A stretch of DNA of 64,000 nt from a bacterium (GTDB taxonomy: Bacteria > Verrucomicrobiota > Verrucomicrobiia > Limisphaerales > RI-55): NCBI GenBank assembly GCA_031362805.1, contig JANLTG010000043.1:5395-69394 (forward strand), in the 5' to 3' direction. The position numbers were made by a program, and so were the translations under genes. Under the pieces are notes generated by a model that did no database searches, was not told the origin of the DNA, and worked only from the letters and a program-made list of their open reading frames with translations. Below are positions 3,393 to 37,106 of the stretch, one piece after another. The stretch's first letter is position 1. Each line of letters opens with the position of its first letter.

Positions 3393-3999
3393 TAGTACGA
3401 AAAGATGCAAGTCAGTTGACCGACGACCGACGACCGACGACCGACGACAGAGGACAGAGGACAGAGGACAGAGGACCGAAGACGGTAGACAGAGGACTGT
3501 CAAAAAAGGAAAGCAGCAGCACTTAACCGCCCGCCTTCATTCCTTGAACTTCGTCGCGGCACGCAGATGAACACAGATGGACGCAGATGAGCGGCCGAGG
3601 GAGTAATGGAGAGTTGGAGAGTTGGAATCGGACGACAGAGGACGGTGGACGGGTAAAGGAGAAAAGGAGCGGGGGAGCGGGGGAGCGGGGCGAAAGAGAC
3701 AGCCAACATTCAACGTTCAATGTTCAACTACCAAGGTGAGGGCGAAGGAGGTCGGAGTCTTTACGCGAATCAACACGAATTAACGCCAAGCGGAATCAGC
3801 CACGAAAGGGCGCAAAGGGCGCACAGTCCGTTTAACAGGAACTAACGGAGGAAGCGGAGGACGGAGGACCGAAGACGGTAGGCTGAAGACGGTCAAAAGC
3901 AGAAAACAGAAAGCGGAAATCAGTGGACCGACGACGGATGACCGAGGACAAGGAACGCTCAACGTCCAATGGCCAATGTTCAAAGCAGATACTGCGGCG
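3393..3999. repeat. 607-bp spacer made entirely of mosaic repeat modules
   Basis: Contains the GAC-phased heptad array, a TTAACC-CAGATG-type module, GGAGAGTTGGAGAGTTGG, GGAGCGGGGGAGCGGGGGAGCGGGG and AACRTTC heptads. It also contains TTTACGCGAAT..CACGAAT, GCCACGAAAGGGCGCAAAGGGCGCACAG, GTTTAACAGGAACTAACGGAGG and a CAAAAGC heptad run. All of these recur in other spacers. Confidence 0.9.
3418..3501. repeat. 12 consecutive in-register GAC-N4 heptads
   Basis: Counted base by base: (GACCGAC)x4 (GACAGAG)x4 GACCGAA GACGGTA GACAGAG GACTGTC. Confidence 0.95.
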
Positions 4000-4929
4000 T
4001 TACCGAGTCTGAGCCACCAAGGTGCGGACTTCGCCCGCGGCATCCTTCACCTGATCGACGGTTTGGTAGGCGCCAGACTTTTCGAGGCGAGCGGCAAAGA
4101 ACGGTCCCTGGCCAAGCCCGACTTCAAAGCACAGCCATGATTTGGGTTTCAGAAAGCGAGGGGCGTCAGTGATCAAGCGACTGATGATCGCGAGCCCGAA
4201 ACTGCCCGCGTCGAAGGCCTCGCGCGGCTCGAACTCACCGATCTCGCGCGGCAACACACGCGCTTTGGATGAGGAGAGGTAAGGCGGGTTGCAGACCACC
4301 AGATCCATCGTGCCGTCAAAATCCCCCTGCGCAAACGGAGCAAACAAATCTCCGACCCGAAACTCGACACGATCCTGAAGCTTATGGAATGCGGCGTTCT
4401 CCCGAGCGAGCGCCACGGCATCGGCGCAAAGGTCGGAAGCAACGACCTGGCAAGCAGGTTCGTGGGCAGCCAGCGCAAGCGCCAAGTTACCGGAGCCCGT
4501 GCAGATATCCATCACCCGGGCACGCCTGCGGGTGCGCACAAGATCGCGGAGCCGCTGGAGAGCAGCGTAGCCGAGAAGCTCGGTTTCCTTGCGCGGAATG
4601 AGCGCCTGAGGTCCCGCCTTGAGCTCCAGTCCCATAAAATTTTGCCAGCCCAGCAGATGGGCCAAGGGATTCCCCGACAGGCGGAGCTCGATCAACTCGT
4701 CGAGGCGTTTACGCTCTGCTTCGGTCAGAGTTGGCAGATCACCGTCGGCCGCTTTTTGTACCGAGCGGTGCTGTCCCGCCGCGGCGAACCAGAGAGCCCG
4801 GATGGCAGACGTCGGACTTTCCTCGGGTTTGTCCTGAAGATTTGGCCAACGGGGTGCAAAGTTCTGAACAAGACAATCGAAGAGGAGACCAGCGACCGCC
4901 GACGGGTTTGGGTTCGGGATGTTGTTCAT
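4000..4929 (-). CDS. prmC: HemK/PrmC-family N5-glutamine (release factor) methyltransferase
   Basis: 309 aa. Shows ...LIPRKETELL..., the SAM motif VMDICTGSGNLALALA and the catalytic NPPY (VVCNPPYLSS). Overall PrmC-like layout. Confidence 0.7.
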   Translation of the reverse strand: MNNIPNPNPSAVAGLLFDCLVQNFAPRWPNLQDKPEESPTSAIRALWFAAAGQHRSVQKAADGDLPTLTEAERKRLDELIELRLSGNPLAHLLGWQNFMGLELKAGPQALIPRKETELLGYAALQRLRDLVRTRRRARVMDICTGSGNLALALAAHEPACQVVASDLCADAVALARENAAFHKLQDRVEFRVGDLFAPFAQGDFDGTMDLVVCNPPYLSSSKARVLPREIGEFEPREAFDAGSFGLAIISRLITDAPRFLKPKSWLCFEVGLGQGPFFAARLEKSGAYQTVDQVKDAAGEVRTLVAQTR

Positions 4930-14137: not shown

Positions 14138-15961
14138 TTAGGGCTGCTCGATGAGAGTTCTCTGGATCAATTCACTGGTGAGCAGAAGGTGGATTTCCGA
14201 CGTATAATTGCCGGTGCCGGTGACGTGCGCGTTCACCATTCTGGCAATGTTCCGGCCGTCCAGATACGGCCGCGAGAGCGTAAGCGGATCCAGCAACATT
14301 TCCTTCACAAAAGGAGCGAGTTGATGGCGATACCAATAGCGATAGTGGTAATACTTGTGCCGGCCGAGGAAGAGTTTTTCCAGATGCAGCGGGGCAAGGA
14401 TTCGGTCCACCTTTGCCAGCCATTGCGGCATGCCGTAATCGTAGGCGTATTCGGCCTTGAAGGTAAATTCCTCGAATTGTTCCGAAATTCTGCCTAGCAG
14501 CCCACGCCGCCCCAAAGGACCGCGATCCGTGGGAAAGGAAGCCAAAGCCGGATTCCCATCAGAAATAAGCCGCTCGGCGATGTGCCGGTTCAACCTGATC
14601 CCCTCGGGGGCCTGATAAGCGACTGCCACCAACTCGTTGTCGAGGTACGGAGAACGAACGGTGATCTGGGACTGCTCCAGAGCGAATCGCGCAAAATGGT
14701 GCCAGGGAACCTGCTTGAACGCGATGAAGGTTAGAGCGTCACACTGCCTTTCACCCTTATACAGCATCCGTGCGTTGTCCAGATGGGGTGTGAAATCGTT
14801 CGCAAACAGAGAACGGTCGAGCGATTTGGGCTTGAAAGCCACAAGTTGTCTCAGGATCTCGCTGCCATAGTTACCCGTCATCCGAATGGGGGCGATCTCC
14901 CTGCTTGCGATCCGGTTGGCAAATAGTGAGGCGGCACCGCTGGCGTCCATGCAACCGTCGGTGATGTAAACACATTGACTCGCGAGCGTGGGAAACTCCG
15001 AAAAGAAACTTCCACCCACAGTGAGCGTTCGATGCGACTGCCTGCAGACCGACGCGACACGGCGGGCAATCTTTGCATCCAAACATTCGCGAAAAACGCC
15101 CCGATGGCTATAGCAAGGAAGCTTGGAGCGTTCGAAGCGAGTCCATGCCATGATGATCCGCCCATCGAGACCGCCGGTAAGCGACATCGCGATCTGATCC
15201 GCGTTGCGGAAGTAGCGAGGCAGGATGCGGACAAAGGTTGCCTTAAGCTTTTCGTAGTAGTCGTCGGTCGAAAGTTTCTCCTGAGATTCCCAGGTTCCTT
15301 TGGAGAAATAGGTCTCCTTTTTAACCGGGCATCGGGGTTTGAAGGTCCAGATCGAACCCGGAGGCACCAAAGAGATGCCAGCGAAGAGCGTCCGGTTTTG
15401 CAGCACACAGCCCATGGTGAGCAACTCGCCCAGCTGCGGCATTTCGAGGCGCCGAAGGTGCGGGAGGATTTTCAGCAAAGCCTTGGCTTCGGACGCGAAG
15501 AAGAAGCCATCCTCATTTTCATGGAAATAAATTCGTCCCAATCCGTAACGATCATTGAACAAGACGACTTTGTTTTCACGAAGATCAATAAGTAGACCAC
15601 TGAAGGCGCCGTTCAATTTCGCCCAAAAACCGTCCCCTTGCTCTTCATAAAGATGCACCAAGTAACTGGCATTCGTGCTTTCAAAACTGTGTCCACCCGC
15701 CTTGAGGCGCTGGACTTCCGCGGGGTCGCCAAATTCCTCACCGGAAAAGATCAGGCACACGTCACGGGTTTCGTTCCAGCTGGGCAGGCAATCCGCAAAG
15801 GAGCCCGGCTGGCTAACCCAGGCAGCGGCGACATCCAACCCCTTTTCGACGAGCGTCCCAGAAGCGTAGGACGGCTCGTGCAACATGGAATTGCGCATCT
15901 CGCCGAGAGCCCCGCGGCGGCTGTCAGTGTTTGGGGAGATGAATCCGGCTATTCCAGGCAT
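14138..15961 (-). CDS. Asparagine synthase (AsnB)-family amidotransferase homolog lacking the N-terminal Cys nucleophile
   Basis: Track ORF is 14138..16054, and its 5' extension reads through the tRNA. The ATG at 15961 gives MPGIAGFISPN..., where AsnB enzymes have MCGI. An Ntn-like domain is followed by an AsnB synthetase-like domain (SLTGGLDGR, corresponding to the SGGLDS PP-loop). Confidence 0.75.
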   Translation of the reverse strand: MPGIAGFISPNTDSRRGALGEMRNSMLHEPSYASGTLVEKGLDVAAAWVSQPGSFADCLPSWNETRDVCLIFSGEEFGDPAEVQRLKAGGHSFESTNASYLVHLYEEQGDGFWAKLNGAFSGLLIDLRENKVVLFNDRYGLGRIYFHENEDGFFFASEAKALLKILPHLRRLEMPQLGELLTMGCVLQNRTLFAGISLVPPGSIWTFKPRCPVKKETYFSKGTWESQEKLSTDDYYEKLKATFVRILPRYFRNADQIAMSLTGGLDGRIIMAWTRFERSKLPCYSHRGVFRECLDAKIARRVASVCRQSHRTLTVGGSFFSEFPTLASQCVYITDGCMDASGAASLFANRIASREIAPIRMTGNYGSEILRQLVAFKPKSLDRSLFANDFTPHLDNARMLYKGERQCDALTFIAFKQVPWHHFARFALEQSQITVRSPYLDNELVAVAYQAPEGIRLNRHIAERLISDGNPALASFPTDRGPLGRRGLLGRISEQFEEFTFKAEYAYDYGMPQWLAKVDRILAPLHLEKLFLGRHKYYHYRYWYRHQLAPFVKEMLLDPLTLSRPYLDGRNIARMVNAHVTGTGNYTSEIHLLLTSELIQRTLIEQP

Positions 15962-15990
15962 GACGAATCGGGATGGAAACGTATGTGAAG

Positions 15991-16069
15991 TGGTGGAGCT
16001 GGGAAGGGCTTGAACCTCCATCGTCGCGCTGTTGCCAACGCGCCGCTCTGCCAATTGAGCTACAGCCCC
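15991..16069 (-). tRNA. tRNA-Ala(GGC)-like gene with non-canonical anticodon arm and T arm
   Basis: Minus-strand sequence: GGGGCTGTAGCTCAATTGGCAGAGCGGCGCGTTGGCAACAGCGCGACGATGGAGGTTCAAGCCCTTCCCAGCTCCACCA. It has a 7-bp acceptor stem with G3:U70, a canonical D arm, the loop TT-GGC-AA, TTCAAGC in the T loop, and an encoded ACCA end. At 79 nt it is 3 nt longer than canonical and needs a bulged A or an 8-nt anticodon loop, plus one extra C at the T-arm/acceptor junction. Folded by hand only. Confidence 0.6.
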
Positions 16070-22216: not shown

Positions 22217-23323
22217 CTAAAATCCGAGGCAGACTGGCGCGCTAAACTCGCGAGAGGATAGCCGGGGACCCTTGGTTGGTGACGTAGTTTTCAGGCCCGG
22301 CGCAGCCTTTCGAAAATGAGCCGCAACAGACCGGGGTAGGATACGGGCAAACTGATCGTCGAAAGTGGCGGTGACCCACACCAGGAATTCGCGGTACAAA
22401 TCCGCTGAATACTCGCCAGTTGGAACCGTTCCATCAAACGCCATGTAGTCCGGATGCACATTCATCAAGGCCATACCGCCCTGTGATGCAATCCAAGTCA
22501 GTTTGCGCTTCCAAAGTTCATTTGTTGGTTCCTTCAAAAGCAGGAACAGCGTGAAATCCTGCGGGAGAGTGTAGGGGAGTTCGAGGTAGCCGGCCTCCAA
22601 AAGCGGAGAGCTGAAAGCAGAAAGCGGAGATGCAGAATCCGAGGACGAGGACGTGCCTGAAAGCGGAAAGCGGAAAGCTGAAAGCGGAAATGTTGAATCC
22701 GAGGACGAGGACGATTGGCGGGGGACCCAGAAGGGGAAGATGGTGCCGACGCCGTCGGGTTGGGGCTCGAAAGGATCCGTGTCGAAGGTGGAGGCATCGT
22801 AGGCGATATCCAAACCATGCAACCATTCGAGGTTGCGCAACATGAAACCGGAGCGAAAACCAACAGCCCCCCATTCTTTGAGCCGGCGATTAATCTCCCG
22901 GGTGCTGGCCTGGAATCTTTCGTGCGACGAGTAAAGTTTGCCGTCGTGGCGGTGATCGTGAACGCCCACTTCAAAGCCGTTAGAGGTGAGCCAACTGCGC
23001 AACTCAGCTGGGACTTGGTATTCGCCGTCAGGTATGAAATTAAACGAGGAACGAAACCCCAAGGACATCTCCAGTTCGGCCAGGTGCTTCACGCGGTCGA
23101 GGCCTTTCTGGCTTTCGACGTCGTGAGTGAGGACTAGGGCGAAGTCCTTGCCGTCGGGCCAACCAAGCCAGCCAACGGGTGGCCGTTCAGAACCGGGCAA
23201 GATCGGCCAGGTCGCGGACACCCGAGGCCGCTTGCGCAGTGCAAACCAACGCCGAATCCCGAGGCGCAGGCGCCAGGGAAGGAGCGGCTTTACTACGTAG
23301 TAGAAGCGGGTGAAAGGAGACAT
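22217..23323 (-). CDS. Polysaccharide deacetylase-like protein (PEP-CTERM-locus type) carrying a 39-codon in-frame repeat insertion
   Basis: The ATG is at 23323 (the track uses a TTG at 23329). FALVLTHDVESQKGL...FEVGVHDHRHDG... indicates a deacetylase barrel, and the C-terminal half resumes after the insertion (GYLELPYTLPQDF...MALMNVHPDY). Confidence 0.65.
   Translation of the reverse strand: MSPFTRFYYVVKPLLPWRLRLGIRRWFALRKRPRVSATWPILPGSERPPVGWLGWPDGKDFALVLTHDVESQKGLDRVKHLAELEMSLGFRSSFNFIPDGEYQVPAELRSWLTSNGFEVGVHDHRHDGKLYSSHERFQASTREINRRLKEWGAVGFRSGFMLRNLEWLHGLDIAYDASTFDTDPFEPQPDGVGTIFPFWVPRQSSSSSDSTFPLSAFRFPLSGTSSSSDSASPLSAFSSPLLEAGYLELPYTLPQDFTLFLLLKEPTNELWKRKLTWIASQGGMALMNVHPDYMAFDGTVPTGEYSADLYREFLVWVTATFDDQFARILPRSVAAHFRKAAPGLKTTSPTKGPRLSSREFSAPVCLGF
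22598..22714. repeat. Two tandem copies of the purine-heptad module inserted in-frame in a CDS
   Basis: Plus strand: CAAAAGCGGAGAGCTGAAAGCAGAAAGCGGAGATGCAGAATCCGAGGACGAGGACG followed by ..CTGAAAGCGGAAAGCGGAAAGCTGAAAGCGGAAATGTTGAATCCGAGGACGAGGACG. Length is 117 nt, which is 39 codons. It encodes SSSSSDSTFPLSAFRFPLSG-TSSSSDSASPLSAFSSPLL. Confidence 0.85.
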
Positions 23324-23419
23324 GTTCAAAAGCAGAAAACTGAAAGCTGAAAGCAGAAATGAACTGCTGACCGGAGGCTGTTCAAAAGCAGAAAACTGAA
23401 AGCGGAAATTAAATGCGGT

Positions 23420-23791
23420 TCAGTTTCCTGAATTACCTTTGGTGTTCTTAACCATGGTTACGAAGATGGCGATCAGCTCGCCGGCCTCGGCCAAGAGACC
23501 TTCCAACGCTGGGTCGGCAATGGCGCAATCATCCCGCAGCAACTCGAGCCACAGCTGCGACTCGTCCGCCTCTTGGGCTGCGCCTTCCAGCTTGGAGCAG
23601 AATTCGGCAGCGGAGCGGGCTCGTCCCGCCTCCCGAACTTGAGCGGCAACGGAAGTGCCGGAGCGCAAGAGTTGACGGCCAAGCACTCTGACCTCTTCGC
23701 GTTCCCTCGGGAGCGCCACGAAAAACCGAATGACCCCCGAGGCAAACCTCTTTGTTCGGTCCCGAAACTCGTGGGATAGGCGGCCGGACAT
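23420..23791 (-). CDS. Four-helix-bundle protein (23S rRNA intervening-sequence protein / Avd-like family)
   Basis: MSGRLSHEFRDRTKRFASGVIRFFVALPREREEVRVLGRQLLRSGTSVAAQVREAGRARSAAEFCSKLEGAAQEADESQLWLELL... is the classic signature of this family. The ATG at 23791 directly abuts a repeat module. Confidence 0.85.
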   Translation of the reverse strand: MSGRLSHEFRDRTKRFASGVIRFFVALPREREEVRVLGRQLLRSGTSVAAQVREAGRARSAAEFCSKLEGAAQEADESQLWLELLRDDCAIADPALEGLLAEAGELIAIFVTMVKNTKGNSGN

Positions 23792-24075
23792 AATCAAAAG
23801 CAGAAAACGGAAAACTGAAAACGGAAAGTGGAAATGTTAAACCGCAGATGAGCAGGAGAAGGAGAAAAGGAGCGGTGGAGTGAGCGAGGCGGACAAAACA
23901 TCCAACATCCAACATCCAACGTTCAACTTCGAGGGCAAGGCGCGCCCGGAGGATCGCGCCCCACCTGGAGTGAGGTTAACGTCCGTCGCGAGGCGCGCCG
24001 GATGGCAGCCGGGGCGGCCGCGCTCCCCGGTTCAAAAGCGGAAATGCCGACGGTCATAGACCGCCGCTACAGGGG
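23792..24075. repeat. Mosaic repeat spacer
   Basis: Contains CAAAAGC heptads, TTAAACCGCAGATG, AACATCC/AACGTTC heptads and GGCGCGCCCGGAGGATCGCGCCCCACCTGG (identical to the copy at 31058-31087). It also contains the GCGCGCCGGATGGCAGCCG..GCGCTCCCCGGTTCAAAAGCGG element. Confidence 0.85.
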
Positions 24076-25362: not shown

Positions 25363-25892
25363 AAAAGTAGAAAGCAGAAAGCAGAAAGCAGAAAGCGGAA
25401 ATTGTGGGCGGAGCTTTTACGCGAATTTCGCGAATTCACACGAATACAAAGCTGAAGTGGCCGCGAAAAGGCACAAAGGACACAAAAGCGGAGACAAAAA
25501 ATCGAACATCGAACACTCAACTTTCAACGTTCAACTACCAGGGCGAGGACGAGGATGACGGTGGACGGTGGACGGTGGACGGTGGACGGTGGACGGTGGA
25601 CGGTGGATCCCTCTCAATAACTGAAAGCGGAAAGCGGAGAGCTGAAATTGTGGGCGGAGTTTTTACGCGAATTTCGCGAATTAATACGAATCAACGCCAA
25701 GCTGAACTAGCCGCGAAAGAGCACATAAGGCGCACAGTCTGTTTAACAGGAGCTAACGGAGTGAGGGTCGAAAACGGGAAAACTTGAAGACACGAAAACG
25801 AGTGCCGGGCCGAAGACCGGCGCTCCCCACCTGCTGACGAGGCCTGGAGTTTCAGTTGATTTGGGACTCGTGTAACTCGTCCCTCCGGATGG
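25363..25892. repeat. Mosaic repeat spacer with a ~246-bp internal duplication
   Basis: The block (AGAAAGC)n-GGAAATTGTGGGCGGAG-TTTTACGCGAATTTCGCGAATT.A.ACGAAT...GCCGCGAAA.GCACA.AAGG occurs at about 25366-25490 and again at about 25621-25745. A (GACGGTG)7 array lies between the copies, and a 125-bp element lies at the right end. Confidence 0.9.
25557..25607. repeat. Perfect tandem heptamer (GACGGTG)x7
   Basis: Counted base by base: 25557-25605 holds seven exact units, plus a partial GA. Confidence 0.95.
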
Positions 25893-28097: not shown

Positions 28098-28973
28098 AGC
28101 GGTAGAGTTCAGAGATCCGACATCAAAGGCAGTTTAACCACTAATGCACACTAATCGATACGAATCTATGGGAGAGGGACAGGTGACAGGGGGTGAGTGT
28201 TCAGCCGAGGAAGGAGACCCGGTGAGGAGGCGAAGGAAAACAGCGAACGCTCAACGTTCAACGTTCAACATTCAACATTCAACGTTCAACCACCAAGGCG
28301 AGGCCGAAGGAGTTCGGAGTTTTTACGCGAATTTCGCGAATTAACACGAATCAACGCCAAGCTGAATTAGCCGCGAAAGAGCACATAAGGCGCAAAGATC
28401 GGTTAACAGGAGCGTGCGAAGGGGGACAAAACATCGAACATTCAACATTCAACATTCAAATGCCGAGGAGGAGGACGTCTTCAAAAGCAGAGAGCTGAGA
28501 CTTTTAACCGCAGATGGACGCAGATGGGGACTGCCGGCTGGCAGCGCGGCAGCACTTTGCAAGCGAGGCCGAGGGGGCCAATGAAGGAGCGGAAATGGAA
28601 ACCACGAATCAACACTAACTGACACGAATTCTTAAACCGCAGATGGACGCGGAGGAGCGGACAGGACTGGAAAACAAGAAAACTTGAAGACACGAAAACG
28701 AGTGCCAGGCCGAAGACCGGCGCTCCCCACCGGCTGACGAAGCCCGGAGTTTAAGTTGATTGGGGACTCGTGGAACTCGTCCCTCCGGATGATCGAGGAC
28801 GATTGTCAAAAACAGAAAGCGGAAAGCGGAGAGCTGAAATGTTTAACGGCAGATGAACACAGATGGACGCAGATGGGGACTGCCGGCTGGCAGCGCGGCA
28901 GCACTTTGCAGGCGAGGCCGAGGCGGCCAATGAAGGAGCGGAAATGGAAACCAAGAATTGACGCCAAGCTGAA
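28098..28973. repeat. 876-bp mosaic repeat spacer with a ~349-bp higher-order duplication
   Basis: An 8-unit AAC-heptad array spans 28239-28294. TTTACGCGAATTTCGCGAATTAACACGAAT begins at 28321. CAGATGGGGACTGCCGGCTGGCAGCGCGGCAGCACTTTGCA.GCGAGGCCGAGG.GGCCAATGAAGGAGCGGAAATGGAAACCA occurs at 28521 and again at 28870. The second copy of the 125-bp element spans 28668-28792. Confidence 0.9.
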
Positions 28974-30107
28974 TCAGACGGAAGCGCTGGACTTGTTGGC
29001 CGGGAGTTTTTGGAGGACTTCGGCGAGGGCCTCGGCGACGCGGCGCAGTTGAGCCTCGGTGAGCTCGGGGAACATGGGCAGTGAGAGGAAGCCGTCTGCG
29101 CACCGCTCGGAAACGGGCAGGGAACCGGCGGGAACCCCCAAGTGCTCGTAGGCTTTCATACGATGCACGGGAACCGGATAATGGATGCCACAGGAGACGC
29201 CGGCGGTGTTCATGGCGTTCAGAACGGCATCGCGATGCGCGACCCGAATGGCGTAGATGTGAAAGACGGGCTGGGCGTAGTCCGCAACGGTGGGGCGGAT
29301 GACGGGGAGCTCGCGGAGTAATTCGTGATAGACGGCGGCGTGCTGGCGGCGGAGTTCATTGCCGCGAGCAAGGTGCTTGAGCTTGGCGCTAAGCACGACG
29401 GCTTGCAGGCCGTCCATGCGGGCGTTCCAACCATCGAGGACATGGTCGTATTTCTTGCGCTGGCCGTGATCGCGGAAGAGCCGGATGTAATCCGCGACGT
29501 CGTCGCGATTGGTAATGACACCACCCGCCTCACCGAAGGCGCCCAGGTTTTTGCCAGGATAGAAACTGAAACAGCCGGCATCGCCCAAGGTGCCGATGGG
29601 GCGACCCTGGTAACGCGCGCCGTGGGCCTGGCAGGCATCCTCGACGACGGCGAGCCCGTGCTTCTTCGCAATGGCAAGGATGGGGTCCATGTCGGCCGGT
29701 TGACCGAAGAGATGAACAGGAACAATCGCGCGGGTCTTCGGGGTGATGGCGGCCTCGATCAGTGACGGATCCATCGTATAGGTCTTTTCGTCAACATCGA
29801 CGAAGACCGGGCGAGCGCCGCAGTGGGTGATGGCCTCGACGGTGGCCATGAAGGTGGCGCTGACGGTGATTACTTCATCGCCCGGTTTGACGCCGACGGC
29901 ATATAGGGCGGCCCAGAGAGCGTCGGTGCCGTTGGCGACGCCGAGGGAGTGTTTGGCCTCGCAGAAGGCCGCGAACTCGCGATCGAATTGATCAACGAAC
30001 TTGCCACCAGCGAAGGCGCAGGAGGCGATGACTTCGTCAAAGGCCCGGTGAATCTCGGGGAGCAACGGTTGGTGATGGAGCTGGAGATCGAGGAAGGGAA
30101 CTTTCAT
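28974..30107 (-). CDS. DegT/DnrJ/EryC1/StrS-family PLP-dependent sugar aminotransferase (WbpE-like)
   Basis: 377 aa. Shows MKVPFLDLQLHHQPLLPEI..., GDEVITVSATFMATVEAI and the CFSFYPGKNLGAFGEAG Lys motif. Confidence 0.9.
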   Translation of the reverse strand: MKVPFLDLQLHHQPLLPEIHRAFDEVIASCAFAGGKFVDQFDREFAAFCEAKHSLGVANGTDALWAALYAVGVKPGDEVITVSATFMATVEAITHCGARPVFVDVDEKTYTMDPSLIEAAITPKTRAIVPVHLFGQPADMDPILAIAKKHGLAVVEDACQAHGARYQGRPIGTLGDAGCFSFYPGKNLGAFGEAGGVITNRDDVADYIRLFRDHGQRKKYDHVLDGWNARMDGLQAVVLSAKLKHLARGNELRRQHAAVYHELLRELPVIRPTVADYAQPVFHIYAIRVAHRDAVLNAMNTAGVSCGIHYPVPVHRMKAYEHLGVPAGSLPVSERCADGFLSLPMFPELTEAQLRRVAEALAEVLQKLPANKSSASV

Positions 30108-31168
30108 AGGATAAAGCGGAAAGCAGAGGACCGAAGACCGACGACGGAAAACAGCGAACGCTCAACGCTCAACGTTCAACTTTCCACATTCAACCGCCAA
30201 GGCGACGCGAAGGTGACCGGAGTTTTTACGCGAATTGCACGAATTCACACGAATGCCGGAGAGATCAATCGACCGACGGTTTTCCAACGCCACAAGACGA
30301 GGCGGTCTCGGAGAGACGCGCCCCACCGTATTCAAACACAGATGGTCGCAGATGAGCGGGTGAGTGGAGACGAACGAAAACAGCGAACGCTCAACGTTCA
30401 ACGTTCAACGTTCAAAGCAGTTATTTACGAAGACACAAAGAACGCGGAGCGAGGAACAAGGATCGAAAACGGGAAAACTTGAAGACGTGAAAACGAGTGC
30501 CGGTTCGGAGACCGGCGCTCCCCAAGCGAGGACGACGACGAAATGGGAACCAAAGTTTTACGCGAATTGCACGAATTCACACGAATGCCGGAGAGATCAA
30601 TCGGCCGACGGGATTTCCAACGCCATAAGACGAGGCGGTCTCGGAGAGAACCGCCCCACCGTGTTTAACCGCGGATGCTTCAAAAACAGAAAACGGAGAG
30701 CAGCGAGTCGAAATTTTAACCACAGATGAACACAGACGAACACAGATGGACGCAGATGAGCGGGTGAAGGAGTGTTGGAGTGAGTGGCGAGGACCGACGA
30801 CGGAGGACAAGGAACATTCAACGTTCAACGCTCAACATCCAACCGCCAGGTGAGGGAGAAGGTGATCAGAGTTTCTACGCGAATTAACACGAATTAGCGC
30901 AAATAAGTGCTGAGTCTGTTACCACAGTGGCGCGAAGCTTTTAACCACGGAGGTAAGAAGAACACGAAGTCGGTTGGCCACGAAAGGGCGCAAAGAACGC
31001 AAAGTCCGGTTAACAGGAGCGTGCGAAGGGGGACAAAACATCGTACATCGAAGGCTAGGCGCGCCCGGAGGATCGCGCCCCACCTGGAACAAGGCCAGGA
31101 ACATCGAACATTCAACGCTCAAGGTCCACTATCCAGGTCGCAGGGAAGATAGTGGCAATCAACGGGAG
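30108..31168. repeat. 1.06-kb mosaic repeat spacer with a ~332-bp duplication
   Basis: A 10-unit xAC heptad array spans 30129-30198. The segment TTTTACGCGAATTGCACGAATTCACACGAATGCCGGAGAGATCAATCG.CCGACGG..TTTCCAACGCCA.AAGACGAGGCGGTCTCGGAGAGA..CGCCCCACCGT, about 125 nt long, occurs at 30225 and again at 30557. A third, partial copy of the 125-bp element spans 30463-30525. Decamer ACRCAGAYGR repeats span 30725-30760. Confidence 0.9.
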
Positions 31169-31672
31169 TTAGGCGGGCACTTCGGGGTCGGTGATGGATC
31201 GGAGAACGCGGGCGGGGTTGCCGGCAACGATGACCCCGGGCGGGACATCCTTCGTGACGACGCTGCCGGCGCCCACGATGGATTTCTCACCCACGGTGAT
31301 GCCGCCCAAAAGCGTGGAACCGGAACCGATGGACGCACCGCGCTTGATCAGCGTCTGCTGGCAGGCCCAATCCGCCTCCGTCTGAAGCGCGCCCGAGACC
31401 GCGGTGGCGCGGGGGAAACGGTCGTTTACAAAGGTGACGCCGTGGCCTACGAAGACTTCGTCTTCGATCGTGATTCCTTCGCAGATGAACGTGTGGCTGG
31501 AGATCTTGCAGCGGGCGCCGATCCGGGCACCCTTTTGAATTTCAACGAAAGTGCCGATCTTCGTTTCATCGCCAATTTCGCAACCGTAGAGATTGACGAA
31601 GGCGAACAGTTTGACGCCGCGTCCGAGTTTGACGTCAGGCGAAATACGGACAGTGGAAGTCGCGCTTTCCAT
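31169..31672 (-). CDS. Left-handed beta-helix N-acetyltransferase (WbpD-like)
   Basis: The ATG at 31672 gives MESATSTVRISPDVKLGRGVKLFAFVNLYGCEIGDETKIGTFVEIQKGARIGARCKISSHTFICEGITIEDEVFVGHGVTFVNDRFPRA.... This is a hexapeptide fold like the WbpD/acetyltransferases of diacetamido-sugar pathways. Confidence 0.75.
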   Translation of the reverse strand: MESATSTVRISPDVKLGRGVKLFAFVNLYGCEIGDETKIGTFVEIQKGARIGARCKISSHTFICEGITIEDEVFVGHGVTFVNDRFPRATAVSGALQTEADWACQQTLIKRGASIGSGSTLLGGITVGEKSIVGAGSVVTKDVPPGVIVAGNPARVLRSITDPEVPA

Positions 31673-33631: not shown

Positions 33632-34452
33632 TGGCAACTCGAAGGGCCTGGATACAGAGCCGGGGTGGACCAGGCAATCGAACCGGGAAAATGGGTGTCC
33701 GCACGCTGCCGCACTTGATCATTCGGTGCCGAATGAGCGGAGAAATGGCGAGCCAGTATAGGTTGAGCGTGTTTCATCAAGACCAGCGTCCAAAATACGG
33801 TACAAACTACTCCCGAGAGGTCCAGTCAGTCAGAATCGCACGCAAGCGAGTTCGAGCAGGTAGCACTCGGCATACCCAGTTCAGGTTTGCACAACACCCC
33901 GCCCCGCAAGCAGCTCGGATTGGCGCAACCCAGCAATGCAATCGCCCATTTTGAACAAAATGCGGCGATAAGGATAGTTTTCTGGAAGGAATGGAGAAGT
34001 GGCGAGACAGTTACCAACCGTTAAGAAGATTCCGAGTGTCTGATTATTAGGCAGGGACAACTTGAAACGAAGACCCCCAGAAGCCAAGCCAATACAGAGC
34101 GAACCGCGCATCGGCAAACGCATTGCAAACACACTTCGCATACACAACTCGCCAAAAAAAGGTAGCCGCATTCGTACCGCAAAGATTAACCACTGGAGAT
34201 GCCTACGCAAATTGCATTCTAAGCTACTAATTGGAAGCGAGATACGGAACGCATATTTCTGGCATCTTGAAATGCCCCGGCGAAGGTCAAGCTTAACGAT
34301 TGTAAGGAAATCGTTACATATCTGCTGCTCCAGCCACGAAAAGGAAGCGTCAAGTTACTTCCAAGTAACAACTTAGGTAATAGCCGCACAACTGTAAGAG
34401 ATTCCGACGAAAGACATGGCCCCAAGGAGGGTGGCTTACTCTCAGCAATAAC
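33632..34452 (-). promoter_or_regulatory. ~0.8-kb ORF-poor, visibly AT-richer leader/promoter region of the EPS operon
   Basis: No protein-like ORF on either strand. It lacks the mosaic modules. Three hairpins or palindromes lie at 34261-34276, 34294-34316 and 34354-34369. It sits between the ubiA-like stop (34453) and the priming transferase ATG (33631). Confidence 0.5.
33932..33947 (-). promoter_or_regulatory. Candidate sigma-54 (-24/-12) promoter
   Basis: Minus strand reads GGGCGATTGCATTGCT, which gives GG-N10-GC with a perfect TTGCT -12 box and a weak -24 box (GGGCGA versus TGGCAC). It lies about 300 nt upstream of the operon ATG. A sigma-54 activator (PrsR-like) is encoded in the window. 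Confidence 0.2.
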
Positions 34453-35316
34453 TCAGGTCGCAGGGATAAAACGCTGAAACAACAGCGCGAGCGGGAAGAA
34501 ACTGAGAACCACCAAACCGACCCAGGGGGAGGTCCAGCCCAGCGCCACGAGATCGACCAGAACAATGCCCGCAAGGAGACCGGAGACCGTGCGACCGAGA
34601 TTGCGTTTGCCGGTCCAGAAAGTGTGTTGCAGGCAGCTCAACAGCCAGCCGACGAGCAGCGCCGACAAGACGATGCCGGGAGTCCGAGCAGCTTCGTTGT
34701 TGATCAACTGGGCAAGAATCACGGGCGCAGCCAACGCCAAGACCGGCCATAGGGCGATCGCCGAGTTCAACGTTTCACGGCGAGCGATGTAACTCAGGCC
34801 GACCACGTACGCGGCCAGCACGAGCGCACACCAAACGGAATAACCCGTGACGCCGTCGGCGCCAGCACTGGCCGCAACCAGGAACAGCCAGAAGCGGCAG
34901 CCCGCCATGATGACGGGCGCGAAAGCCACCCGCTTATGCACGACATCGTAAACAACAACAGTCACAAGAAGCAGCAAGGTCAAGTAACCGGTCGTCCAGC
35001 CAAGCGGGATGAGCAGCAATGAACCGGCGCCGAGCAACACGAGCGCAAACCACCACGCGGCCGCGAGGGAAACGTGACCGGATGGGATAGGCCGCTCGCG
35101 GCGATGTTGACGATCGAAGTCCGCATCGATCGCGTCGTTCAGAAACATCCCACCAACGTAGATGAGCGTGGCGCCGACGCAGAGTTCAAACAAGGTCCAA
35201 CCCGAGCCGCCACCGCCAAGCCACCAGCCGGCGACGCAATTGGACCAGACCGTGGGCAGATTGGAAACCCGACCCAAGATTAACAGCCCGCGCCAAAACT
35301 GCCCTCGATCGGTCAT
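34453..35316 (-). CDS. UbiA-family aromatic prenyltransferase
   Basis: 287 aa and polytopic. Shows NDAIDADFDRQHRRERPIPSG (NDxxDxxxD motif). Confidence 0.8.
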   Translation of the reverse strand: MTDRGQFWRGLLILGRVSNLPTVWSNCVAGWWLGGGGSGWTLFELCVGATLIYVGGMFLNDAIDADFDRQHRRERPIPSGHVSLAAAWWFALVLLGAGSLLLIPLGWTTGYLTLLLLVTVVVYDVVHKRVAFAPVIMAGCRFWLFLVAASAGADGVTGYSVWCALVLAAYVVGLSYIARRETLNSAIALWPVLALAAPVILAQLINNEAARTPGIVLSALLVGWLLSCLQHTFWTGKRNLGRTVSGLLAGIVLVDLVALGWTSPWVGLVVLSFFPLALLFQRFIPAT

Positions 35317-36753: not shown

Positions 36754-37106
36754 GCGGGGATGCGCGCAACATCGAACATCCAACATCGAACATCCAACAT
36801 CGAACATTCAACGTCGAACATTCAACGTCCAAGCAGCAGGCCGGGTCCCGAAGCTTTACGCGAATTTGCGCAAATTGACACGAATTGGATTAGCCACGAA
36901 AGAGCACAAAGGACGCGAAGGACGGAAAGCGGAGAATTTTAACCACAGATGGAGCGGGTAAGGGAGCAAAGGAGCAAAGGGGCGCTGGAGCAGTGGAGTG
37001 TTGGAGTGTTGGAGTGAGTGCGAGGCGAAACATCGAACATCGAACACTGAACGTCCGGGCGCTGCCAAGCGCTGCTGGCCGATCTGGAGATCAGCGTTCC
37101 ACGCTA
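36754..37106. repeat. Mosaic repeat spacer between convergent genes
   Basis: Nine AAC heptads span 36768-36830 (AACATCG AACATCC ...). The spacer also contains TTTACGCGAATTTGCGCAAATTGACACGAAT, GCCACGAAAGAGCACAAAGGACGCGAAGG, TTTTAACCACAGATGG and GGAGTGTTGGAGTGTTGGAGTGAG, then AACATCG heptads again. Orientation matches the EPS-locus copies. Confidence 0.9.

Follow-up and report, generated by a model that had tools for sequence, protein, structure and literature searches.

Long spacers filled with tandem repeats of 7 nt raise the question whether such arrays carry a code that is read by a protein or reflect the way in which they arose. The stretch considered here (contig JANLTG010000043.1 of assembly GCA_031362805.1, positions 5,395 to 69,394 of the forward strand; 64,000 nt, referred to as the window) stems from a verrucomicrobial bacterium of soil type and constitutes an unusually dense example, in a phylum for which literature searches revealed no description of heptamer arrays. 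According to the original prediction, a triplet RAC on the plus strand, i.e. GUY in the mRNA, recurs every 7 nt as the invariant feature of these arrays and might be recognized by an oligomeric protein similar to HutP or TRAP, with slippage of 7-nt units followed by drift as the alternative. It is this alternative that is favored by the evidence. The arrays probably represent slippage-driven heptanucleotide simple sequence repeats (SSRs) within a fast-evolving mosaic cassette and would then be a verrucomicrobial counterpart of the short tandemly repeated repetitive sequences (STRRs) of cyanobacteria. A protein code common to all array families appears to be absent, as judged from unit sequences and predicted RNA folding. 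The analysis proceeds from the DNA sequence alone and covers 64 kb of the genome, with the relevant genes all on one strand. Arrays are assigned to the minus strand throughout, and units are written as they read on the plus strand unless sense RNA is mentioned.

The closest relatives of the DegT-type aminotransferase encoded at 28974-30107 (minus strand) are found in metagenome-assembled genomes (MAGs) of Verrucomicrobiota (85-89% identity within a species collection, none identical). This gene belongs to a surface-polysaccharide cluster of the exopolysaccharide (EPS) or O-antigen type at 1-37 kb, which has all of its genes on the minus strand and codes for MBOAT, Wzx, Wzy, an asparagine-synthase-like protein, two UDP-glucose dehydrogenases, GT1, a Wzz/tyrosine-kinase type protein, DegT, a GFO oxidoreductase and an initiating sugar transferase. 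The arrays fill the long spacers between these co-directional polysaccharide genes. No arrays were found at 38-64 kb, where the G+C content is higher and long spacers are nearly absent.

Upon re-reading of the sequence, the predicted units were recovered exactly in the runs at 3418-3501 (12 GAC units), 25557-25605 ((GACGGTG)7), 28239-28294, 30129-30198 and 36768-36830; for the run proposed at 3928-3990 the listed units are correct, but it begins 2 nt earlier, at 3926. At 1621-1730, where units phased by TGA or TAA had been proposed, T-R-R opens 13 of the 15 full units. Phase is indeed maintained across changes of unit sequence within contiguous runs. The counts of in-phase RAC runs are 18, 12 and 7 for minimum lengths of 3, 4 and 6 units, respectively, compared to 2.3, 0.12 and 0 in first-order Markov simulations of the window. 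The suggested autocorrelation analysis against dinucleotide shuffles likewise gave a positive result, with a lag-7 identity of z=3.8-9.5 in seven of eight long spacers; coding DNA displays a lag-3 signal only, and weaker lag-8 and lag-10 signals in the spacers originate from 8- and 10-nt arrays located there. Tandem Repeats Finder (TRF) reports 26 arrays of period 7, 14 or 21 in the window. All arrays are intergenic except for one (22600-22714), which lies within a coding sequence.

Little periodicity extends beyond recognizable arrays. Masking of the TRF arrays, which account for 30% of the spacer bases, leaves a residual lag-7 signal (z reduced from 8.5 to 2.4) and removes the signals at lags 14 and 21, and even in the unmasked sequence the 7-nt coherence is lost by lag 28-35, i.e. 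within about four units. A common register of separate RAC arrays in the same spacer did not hold up, with 5 of 20 pairs in phase versus 2.9 expected (not significant). As separate arrays share phase no more often than expected by chance and the signal is largely lost upon masking, register is a property of contiguous arrays, and register within contiguous runs is exactly what slippage of whole units would give.

The plus-strand heptads fall into at least four families, in addition to the 8- and 10-nt arrays: family A (RRARCNG; 43 units in 12 runs), family B (GACNGNN; 38 units), family C (AACRYYS; 56 units) and family D (NNGTRRN; 18 units). A family B run at 4887 is situated in coding DNA and is probably due to chance, and (GACGGTG)7 can also be read as family D (CGGTGGA). 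The proposed invariance of RAC applies to the GAC and AAC families only and fails in families A and D as well as in the 8- and 10-nt arrays of the same spacers. All families share one orientation. Families A, B and D consist of 69-87% purines on the plus strand and are hence pyrimidine-rich in the gene-sense RNA. Column variability was determined with an unbiased array finder for 56 arrays from the window and three close relatives, and the most variable column proved to be the one flanked by C on its 5' and by G on its 3' side (mean variability 0.395 versus 0.224 overall). For the window alone, the C-N-G centre scores 0.468 against a permutation mean of 0.215 ± 0.045, a value reached in none of 5000 permutations, and the effect is weaker in 168 arrays from other taxa (0.321 versus 0.25 ± 0.019). 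C_G is the top variable context in two independent sets, followed by T_A or G_C. Judging from the unit sequences, what is fixed in families A, B and D is therefore C-N-G with a free centre (GAC-N-G, RC-N-G) rather than RAC.

For family C, the triplet finds a different explanation. Among 64 units of the AAC family, A occupies positions 1 and 2 in 61 and 62 cases and C position 3 in 60, followed by A/G at position 4 (56), T/C at positions 5 (54) and 6 (63) and C/G at position 7 (all 64). In sense RNA the unit thus reads S-R-R-Y-G-U-U, and its R, R and Y are always complementary to the U, U and G of a second unit if G·U pairs are allowed along with Watson-Crick pairs. A unit of this kind is a wobble-tolerant palindrome with the triplet as its GUU half, which accounts for a conserved triplet next to a variable spacer, and since G·U pairs are involved, long hairpins form in the gene-sense strand only. 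For 36768-36830, a perfect, G·U-rich hairpin of 29 bp is predicted in the sense RNA (-32.8 kcal/mol, z=-8.7; a value matched by 0 of 200 shuffles), compared to -4.6 kcal/mol (z=0.1) for the antisense RNA; the alternation of C and G at position 7 of this array turns one mismatch per unit into a G-C pair. The corresponding values for 28239-28294 are -21.7 kcal/mol (z=-5.2) in sense and -6.7 kcal/mol in antisense direction. CGCUGUUUUC comes after three of the AAC hairpins, which receive terminator-like scores. Unit statistics and folding predictions therefore point to G·U-tolerant self-pairing of the sense RNA as what explains the AAC triplet.

In light of these data, a ring protein of the HutP or TRAP type that reads RAC on the plus strand (GUY in the mRNA) at a spacing of 4 nt is extremely unlikely, even though the 7-nt period equals the HutP triplet plus 4 nt and RAC is nearly invariant in two families. 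HutP targets comprise two sets of three UAG (NAG) triplets placed 4 nt apart and TRAP targets 9-11 GAG/UAG triplets with a spacing of 2-3 nt, and both protein families are, to our knowledge, confined to Bacillota. The arrays resemble such targets in being periodic short motifs with short spacers. However, there is no triplet common to all families, and neither UAG/NAG nor GAG/UAG is conserved in the window. The NAG-N4 code of HutP can be read on the plus strand of family A only (CAG-N4), where its A is the most variable position; because the centre of C-N-G varies most, this reading of the plus strand is ruled out. A TRAP code is incompatible with a period of 7 instead of 5-6 nt. Recognition of this type is further contradicted by the AAC arrays, which according to folding prediction are double-stranded in sense RNA and owe their GUU to pairing, and by the close relatives, which carry other unit sequences at the same spacers. 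tblastn searches with HutP, MtrB, CspA, CspB, CsrA and Hfq as queries returned noise only, both in the window and in all loci retrieved for comparison, with a best HutP E value of 1.8 and no MtrB match in the window; the lack of a HutP- or TRAP-like protein in the window is a weak argument, given that it covers only 64 kb of the genome. As known RNA elements, both a HutP-binding RNA (the sense triplets are GUY or CNG instead of UAG/NAG, and the context is polysaccharide instead of hut genes) and a TRAP-binding RNA (the 9-11 GAG/UAG triplets with 2-3 nt spacing are missing) were rejected, and no hut or trp terminator/antiterminator context is present.

Within the spacers, the arrays follow a common order. 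On the sense strand, an ATTCGYG-rich module is recurrently followed by an AAC array, a GAC array, 8- and 10-nt arrays (CCCGCTCC, ACWCTCCA, CATCTGNNNN), a family A array (CNGYYYY) bracketed by AUUUC...GCUUUUGA, and the start codon. The spacer 30107-31169 harbors about three tandem copies of a cassette of ~310-335 nt; its ATTCGYG-rich modules are located at 30894, 30586 and 30254, each with an AAC array after it. In alignments, the three in-phase GAC-to-AAC junctions (3926, 30129, 30792) share the units GACCGAC-GACGGAN along with flanking sequence, and the AAC arrays share a conserved non-repeat tail (AACCRCCAAGGYGAGG...GGAGTTTTTACGCGAAT). Because junctions and tails align as one element, the junctions are copies by descent, i.e. 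homologous copies of one composite element and not independent events. The alignments thus identify the arrays, to all appearances, as pieces of a larger dispersed mosaic cassette that has been copied within and between spacers. The same mosaic comprises octamer arrays, (GGAGCGGG)3 and (TGGAGWGT)2-3, at 3666-3690, 3607-3626 and 36963-37016 on the plus strand, with G runs opposite to the genes; these could form G-quadruplexes on that strand. A GC-rich dispersed module (...GGCGCGCCCGGAGGATCGCGCCCCACC... / ...GGCGCGCCGGAYGGCAGCCG.GSCGGC.GCGCTCCCCGGTTCAAAAGCGG) is found beside family A arrays at 1740-1860, 23930-24030 and 31040-31090.

Comparison with relatives indicates how rapidly the units are replaced. 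In relatives with 86-89% identical DegT, the DegT-flanking spacers hold heptads of other sequence (CAGTAAG, CAGTGGT, AACTTCC, AGATAGC). One of them (L003, 86% DegT identity) displays long in-phase runs, including one of 19 units (GAAAGCT...GGAGTCA...GTAAGCA...GTAAGCG), and also contains family D (CAGTAAG, CAGTGGT), AGATAGC stems from another (L002, 89%), and a third (L004, 85%) lacks heptads at the DegT-flanking spacers and has family A arrays elsewhere. A strain-level search by exact-protein look-ups of six window genes yielded five same-strain contigs and a single contig of another strain (L083, from another sample). The former (short-read Logan contigs L001, L082, L084, L085 and L206) do not differ from the window, and each of them terminates inside an array. 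In the latter, the 23S_rRNA_IVP (hereafter IVP) coding sequence differs by 1 nt and the downstream spacer is identical, yet the mosaic is wholly different beyond about 45 nt upstream of the IVP gene, and the leader array of this gene differs at the CNG centre only. In 80 loci from many phyla, period 7 is represented by 87 arrays, period 14 by 32 and period 21 by 10. Taken with 14 and 21, period 7 ranks first among the non-triplet periods of these loci; it rivals the coding-associated period 9 (99 arrays) and exceeds 6, 8 and 10. Spacers densely filled with heptads were also seen in deltaproteobacterial and Syntrophales loci. A sense-strand pyrimidine bias of heptad arrays was not detected across other taxa (19 versus 30, with crude gene calls), for which reason the strict orientation is to be regarded as a feature of the lineage or of a region with all genes on one strand. 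In two Syntrophaceae MAGs, inverted (AAGGTTC)n and (CTTGAAC)n arrays flank about 360 nt just upstream of a DegT homologue (L047 9412-9982, L020 9548-9982), with (CTTGAAC)n extending up to 144 nt, which represents a long-range inverted heptad layout in another phylum.

At four genes behind repeat-rich spacers, family A arrays come to within 2-8 nt of the start codon (ATG), namely at those for DegT (30107), the UDP-glucose dehydrogenase UGDH2 (25362), IVP (23791) and a deacetylase-like protein (23323). A Shine-Dalgarno-like core, even of 4 nt, precedes only 5 of 40 putative starts in the window. L004 and L083 have retained the IVP leader, with 4-5 units: the L004 gene has the same leader (...CAGTTTTCTGCTTTTGATT-ATG) with four units, compared to five in the window, and heptads on both of its sides. 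The array at 22600-22714 is read in frame within the open reading frame (ORF) 22217-23323 (minus strand) as a low-complexity loop (SSSSSDSTFPLSAFRFPLSGTSSSSDSASPLSAFSSPLLEA) between the conserved motifs FPFWVP and GYLELPYT of the deacetylase-like protein of the polysaccharide cluster. This hypervariable loop is in frame in all 24 homologues (length 30-141 nt), and verrucomicrobial homologues build it from other heptads, namely seven CTCAACN units (L079 16142-16216), AGGTCAG and TCAACTC (L011 16483-16596), GCATCNA (L013 15373-15438) or ACGAATC (L032 15383-15445). In-frame loops made from different heptads imply that arrays arise wherever they are tolerated and that selection then keeps the frame.

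Taken together, these findings are most readily reconciled with arrays that would grow, shrink and diversify by slippage or duplication of whole units plus point mutation, a process by which register would be kept automatically and turnover would be very fast. In addition, the arrays may act in cis on the mRNA and could be tuned by copy number: some would serve as hairpins for processing, stability or termination, others as C-rich tracts or as unstructured, pyrimidine-rich leaders abutting start codons where Shine-Dalgarno sites are largely missing. By analogy and from sequence context, this cis role with copy-number tuning is plausible; it is hinted at by the co-orientation, by the arrays that abut start codons, by the conservation of a leader and by the example of hmw (see below).

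Several observations do not sit easily with slippage as the main cause. All arrays, including the one in coding DNA, have a single orientation with respect to transcription, which pure neutral slippage does not predict; as all genes lie on one strand, transcription and replication are inseparable as its source. The conserved C and G on either side of a free base could stem from recognition by a protein. The four family A arrays at start codons, together with a leader (...CAGUUUUCUGCUUUUGAUU-AUG) that is conserved across lineages with otherwise unrelated spacers, hint at constraint. Regarding the AAC arrays, the G·U-compatible substitution pattern could result from strand-biased deamination instead of selection for hairpins. 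An orientation test of such variants is only suggestive: in 80 metagenome loci with (AACGTTC)3, pairing-preserving variants follow the predicted gene orientation (26:10 versus 6:15), but the gene calls are crude and one array contributes 15.

Among the rival explanations, contingency or 'tuning-knob' loci are compatible with slippage-driven arrays and add selection for mutability: the number of 7-nt units in a 5' leader would rise or fall and thereby alter the expression of individual surface-polysaccharide genes, as modelled on hmw1A, and the array in the deacetylase-like gene would switch frame unless changes came in multiples of three units. We consider this a tentative possibility. In its favor, the arrays cluster at the surface-polysaccharide genes and do not occur at 38-64 kb, and some lie in leaders beside start codons. 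Where arrays of two unit types adjoin, an imperfect hairpin is predicted in sense RNA; the IVP leaders of different lineages vary by one unit; several lineages possess a heptad loop, in frame, at the same site of an EPS-modifying enzyme; and there is experimental precedent (PMC12721329). However, the same-strain short-read contigs all match the window and break at arrays, many arrays are far from any start codon, the near absence of long spacers makes the lack of arrays in the right half weak evidence, and the invariably in-frame coding loop provides no OFF alleles. The assumption of a single-strand RNA binder with a 7-nt footprint, for instance with a cold-shock-domain or S1-type oligonucleotide-binding (OB) fold, is less convincing and on balance unlikely. 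Such a protein, a workable version of the one first proposed, would coat the pyrimidine-rich heptads of the sense RNA with one domain per unit and thereby keep leaders unstructured, recruit ribosomes without Shine-Dalgarno sites or prevent termination. This would suit families A and B, which are pyrimidine-rich and predicted to be unstructured in sense RNA, as well as the start codons with abutting arrays and rare Shine-Dalgarno-like cores. Bacillus subtilis CspB binds the heptanucleotide GTCTTTG/T with a preference for C at position 3 and T at positions 2, 4 and 6 (PMC1904285); the sense units of family B (GUC-N-N-C-N, e.g. GUCUUCG and GUCCUCU) begin with GUC as well and agree with GUCUUUG/U in 3-6 of 7 letters, and the same kinds of binder have been proposed for TAACTGA repeats (PMC4679880). 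Yet about one unit in nine should match the CspB consensus in three letters by chance, unit sequences are conserved neither between relatives nor between families, the base-paired AAC arrays offer no single strands, no Csp or S1 gene is present in the 64-kb window, and the arrays of other taxa lack the sense-strand pyrimidine bias.

More specifically, the heptads could serve as a cis code that is read on the sense mRNA by a protein whose footprint is 7 nt, either a cold-shock/S1-type OB fold or the Avd-like four-helix-bundle IVP, with bound arrays replacing Shine-Dalgarno initiation or preventing termination of surface-polysaccharide genes and slippage serving as a heritable, quickly adjustable dial. 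This more elaborate proposal is somewhat more doubtful still; if it were true, C-N-G with its free centre would be a signature of recognition or slippage and could help to explain why 7 is a favored repeat length in bacteria. The IVP gene (23420-23791, minus strand; PF05635) encodes a four-helix-bundle protein and is situated between family A arrays, and heptad arrays of this family flank both sides of it in the window and in L004 (8036-8398). The closest solved structure of the IVP protein is 2RLD, which has five chains; Avd, a protein of diversity-generating retroelements, presumably is a member of PF05635 and a nucleic-acid-binding pentamer. In about 120 metagenome loci, only three weak IVP matches were found, none adjacent to arrays and without enrichment. 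A role on the DNA level, be it as phased protein sites, as curvature or nucleoid elements, or as non-B DNA (AACGTT cruciforms or plus-strand G-quadruplexes of (GGAGCGGG)n), is very unlikely. It could draw on the palindromic nature of AACGTT, on three heptads amounting to 21 bp or two helical turns in line with the 14- and 21-nt superperiods, and on the G-rich heptamers of Xanthomonas and Nostoc studied as G-quadruplex formers (PMC4692102). On the other hand, pairing is preserved on one strand only via G·U, which neither a duplex site nor a cruciform would favor, most heptads are devoid of G runs, and unit turnover is too fast for a fixed DNA-binding site. Slippage-driven SSR arrays within a mosaic cassette, possibly with cis functions, therefore remain the preferred reading.

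The individual arrays are distributed as follows. The array at 3418-3501 (family B; four GACCGAC, four GACAGAG and four variants) forms part of the 5' leader of the MBOAT gene and lies 26 nt upstream of its ATG (3392), a start shared by public gene calls. In its sense RNA, (CUCUGUC)4 is predicted to pair imperfectly with (GUCGGUC)4 (minimum free energy -22.7, z -2.9; antisense z -0.7). The same spacer contains two short family B arrays at 3634-3654 (GACAGAG GACGGTG GACGGGT) and 3860-3880 (GACGGAG GACCGAA GACGGTA), a family C array at 3705-3725 that is followed by the conserved tail AACTACCAAGGTGAGG...TTTACGCGAAT, and non-heptad arrays at 3564-3690, i.e. the 10-nt CAGATGNNCN (3564-3590) and the 8-nt TGGAGAGT (3607-3626) and GGAGCGGG (3666-3690). 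The gene at 4000-4929 has its stop codon 19 nt from the end of the cassette copy at 3926-3981 (four GAC units, then four AAC or AAT units in phase). Two further copies reside in the DegT spacer: three GAC and seven xAC units at 30129-30198, which along with family A units at 30113-30126 reach the DegT start codon (30107), and three GAC and five AAC units at 30792-30847 as the third cassette copy. (GACGGTG)7 at 25557-25605 corresponds to (CACCGUC)7 in the sense RNA, which is C-rich, G-poor and predicted to be unstructured (minimum free energy -0.1, z +1.7).

Family C is further represented at 28239-28294 (eight units; the sense RNA hairpin is followed by CGCUGUUUUCC), 28430-28457 (AACATCG and three AACATTC), 30379-30413 (a terminator-like hairpin plus U tract in sense RNA), 36768-36830 (a 14-nt superperiod of alternating AACATCG and AACATCC), 37029-37056, 23897-23931 (three AACATCC and others), 25505-25539 and 31100-31120. 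Family A arrays adjoin UGDH2 at 25371-25398 (three AAAGCAG and one AAAGCGG, sense CNGYUYU), where the array ends 8 nt from the start codon, and the IVP gene at 23797-23824, directly upstream of its ATG, with the ending GCUUUUGAUU-AUG. Two others lie within 23329-23405, at 23329-23356 and 23385-23405 (56 nt apart), of which the former ends in GCUUUUGAAC-AUG at the start of the deacetylase-like gene. The coding array at 22600-22714 combines family A heptads with CGAGGA hexamers; its repeat unit measures 60 nt and is present 1.9 times. Additional family A runs are present at 1386-1413, 1862-1882, 3896-3916, 25624-25644, 28809-28836 and 30683-30703. The long in-phase run at 1621-1730 drifts from family A-like units into family D (CNGTRRN: CAGTAAT, CTGTGGA, CAGTGAT and others). 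A terminator-like module of the sense RNA, consisting of a GCCGGUCUUCGGCCCGGC hairpin and (GUUUUCNN)4, is located at 25768-25821 with copies at 28668-28721 and 30463-30516. These strong modules are picked up by a terminator scan and are situated within the spacers of what otherwise appears to be one long operon.

With respect to other signals in the spacers, consensus scans for promoters and terminators gave no more sites than shuffles, and a sigma-70-like promoter was not found in the spacers by the consensus scan. Rfam covariance models did not match the repeat-rich spacers at the gathering score or at E<=1, and the sole match at the gathering score in the whole window is one tRNA. This tRNA-like gene is located mid-cluster at 15991-16069 (minus strand; Rfam tRNA, 45 bits) and exhibits G3:U70 and an encoded CCA, along with an abnormal anticodon arm, for which ARAGORN reports a 4-base anticodon 'ggca' and Rfam three extra loop bases. 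As the 5' end of the long ORF 14138-16054 overlaps this gene, the true start of the ORF must be further downstream. Unlike every other long spacer, the 815-nt spacer 33637-34453 upstream of the initiating sugar transferase gene, the first of the co-directional block, contains no repeats and no 7-nt periodicity. It may be the real regulatory region of the cluster. The arrays also generate long spurious ORFs on both strands, e.g. at 25404-25787, 29949-30482 and 30364-30729 on the plus strand, and from a practical point of view both these ORFs and the breakage of short-read assemblies at arrays deserve attention.

Repeats of this kind are already known from other bacteria. Heptamers constitute an over-represented class of long SSRs in many bacteria, and there is little literature on why 7 nt is preferred or what the function may be (PMC4692102, PMC4679880). 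Polymerase slippage has been proposed for their over-representation in many bacterial genomes (PMC4692102, citing Mrazek 2007), and the abundance of period 7 in the 80 loci is in agreement with both. Three regularities seen in the window may contribute to this discussion: G·U self-pairing behind a triplet, a C and a G around a hypervariable base, and co-orientation with start-codon abutment and an in-frame loop. If copy number tunes expression, the arrays would provide an environmental bacterium with contingency loci for its surface polysaccharides.

Among the known systems, repetitive extragenic palindromic (REP) sequences and bacterial interspersed mosaic elements (BIMEs) are similar with regard to the recurring module order, the location in spacers of co-transcribed genes, the many dispersed copies and the hairpins able to stabilize or terminate mRNA. 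They differ as imperfect palindromes of ~35 bp linked to REP-associated tyrosine transposases (RAYTs), whereas the window is built from tandem 7-, 8- and 10-mers and no RAYT transposase was seen. TAACTGA heptamers of marine Beggiatoaceae and of some Cyanobacteria and Bacteroidetes are positioned just upstream of start codons without Shine-Dalgarno sites, with S1, Csp or CsrA as proposed binders (MacGregor 2015, PMC4679880). Like the arrays described here, they are forward-oriented, occur in 2-6 or more copies a few nucleotides upstream of such genes and are occasionally found inside ORFs. In contrast to their one dominant unit, several families are present in the window, where only four of about 16 family A arrays adjoin a start codon and the others lie deep in spacers. 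A TAACTGA array is absent from the TRF output of the window, the nearest units being AUUACUG and AUCACUG (sense) in 1667-1722.

The Haemophilus hmw1A repeat (ATCTTTC)n is transcribed and gives rise to a long hairpin in the 5' untranslated region that is cut by RNase III, and both expression and changes in repeat number depend on this hairpin (PMC12721329). As in hmw1A/hmw2A, a sense pyrimidine-rich heptamer precedes a surface-structure gene of the window and is predicted to form a long imperfect hairpin. The location in a transcribed leader, RNase III cleavage, length variation and the setting of expression by copy number have been demonstrated for hmw; in the window there are many arrays per spacer, in an organism not known as host-adapted. 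Heptamers near start codons also affect the expression of recF and recO in Nostoc (bioRxiv 2022.06.06.494920).

The closest match is provided by the cyanobacterial STRRs and other heptameric SSRs. GGGAATC of Xanthomonas and GGGGAYT of Nostoc, for example, occupy the same gene gaps in related strains with highly variable length and sequence (PMC4692102). The window shares with this group the tandem 7-nt units, the several families per genome, the intergenic location including operon spacers, the variation in length and sequence between close relatives at the same spacers and the lack of an established function. STRRs in the strict sense belong to heterocystous cyanobacteria and have the units CCCCAGT, TTGGTCA and CAACAGT. 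The similarity of the L003 unit TGACCAC to STRR2 (presumably TGACCAA; 6 of 7 letters identical) is taken by us to be a coincidence. The window differs by its origin from Verrucomicrobiota, by other unit sequences, by an ordered mosaic with 8- and 10-nt arrays that is co-oriented with transcription and, compared to the G-rich units, by one family that is a G·U-tolerant palindrome. Since the relatives are Verrucomicrobiota and the units differ, the arrays are best filed under the general heptameric SSRs rather than under STRRs proper.

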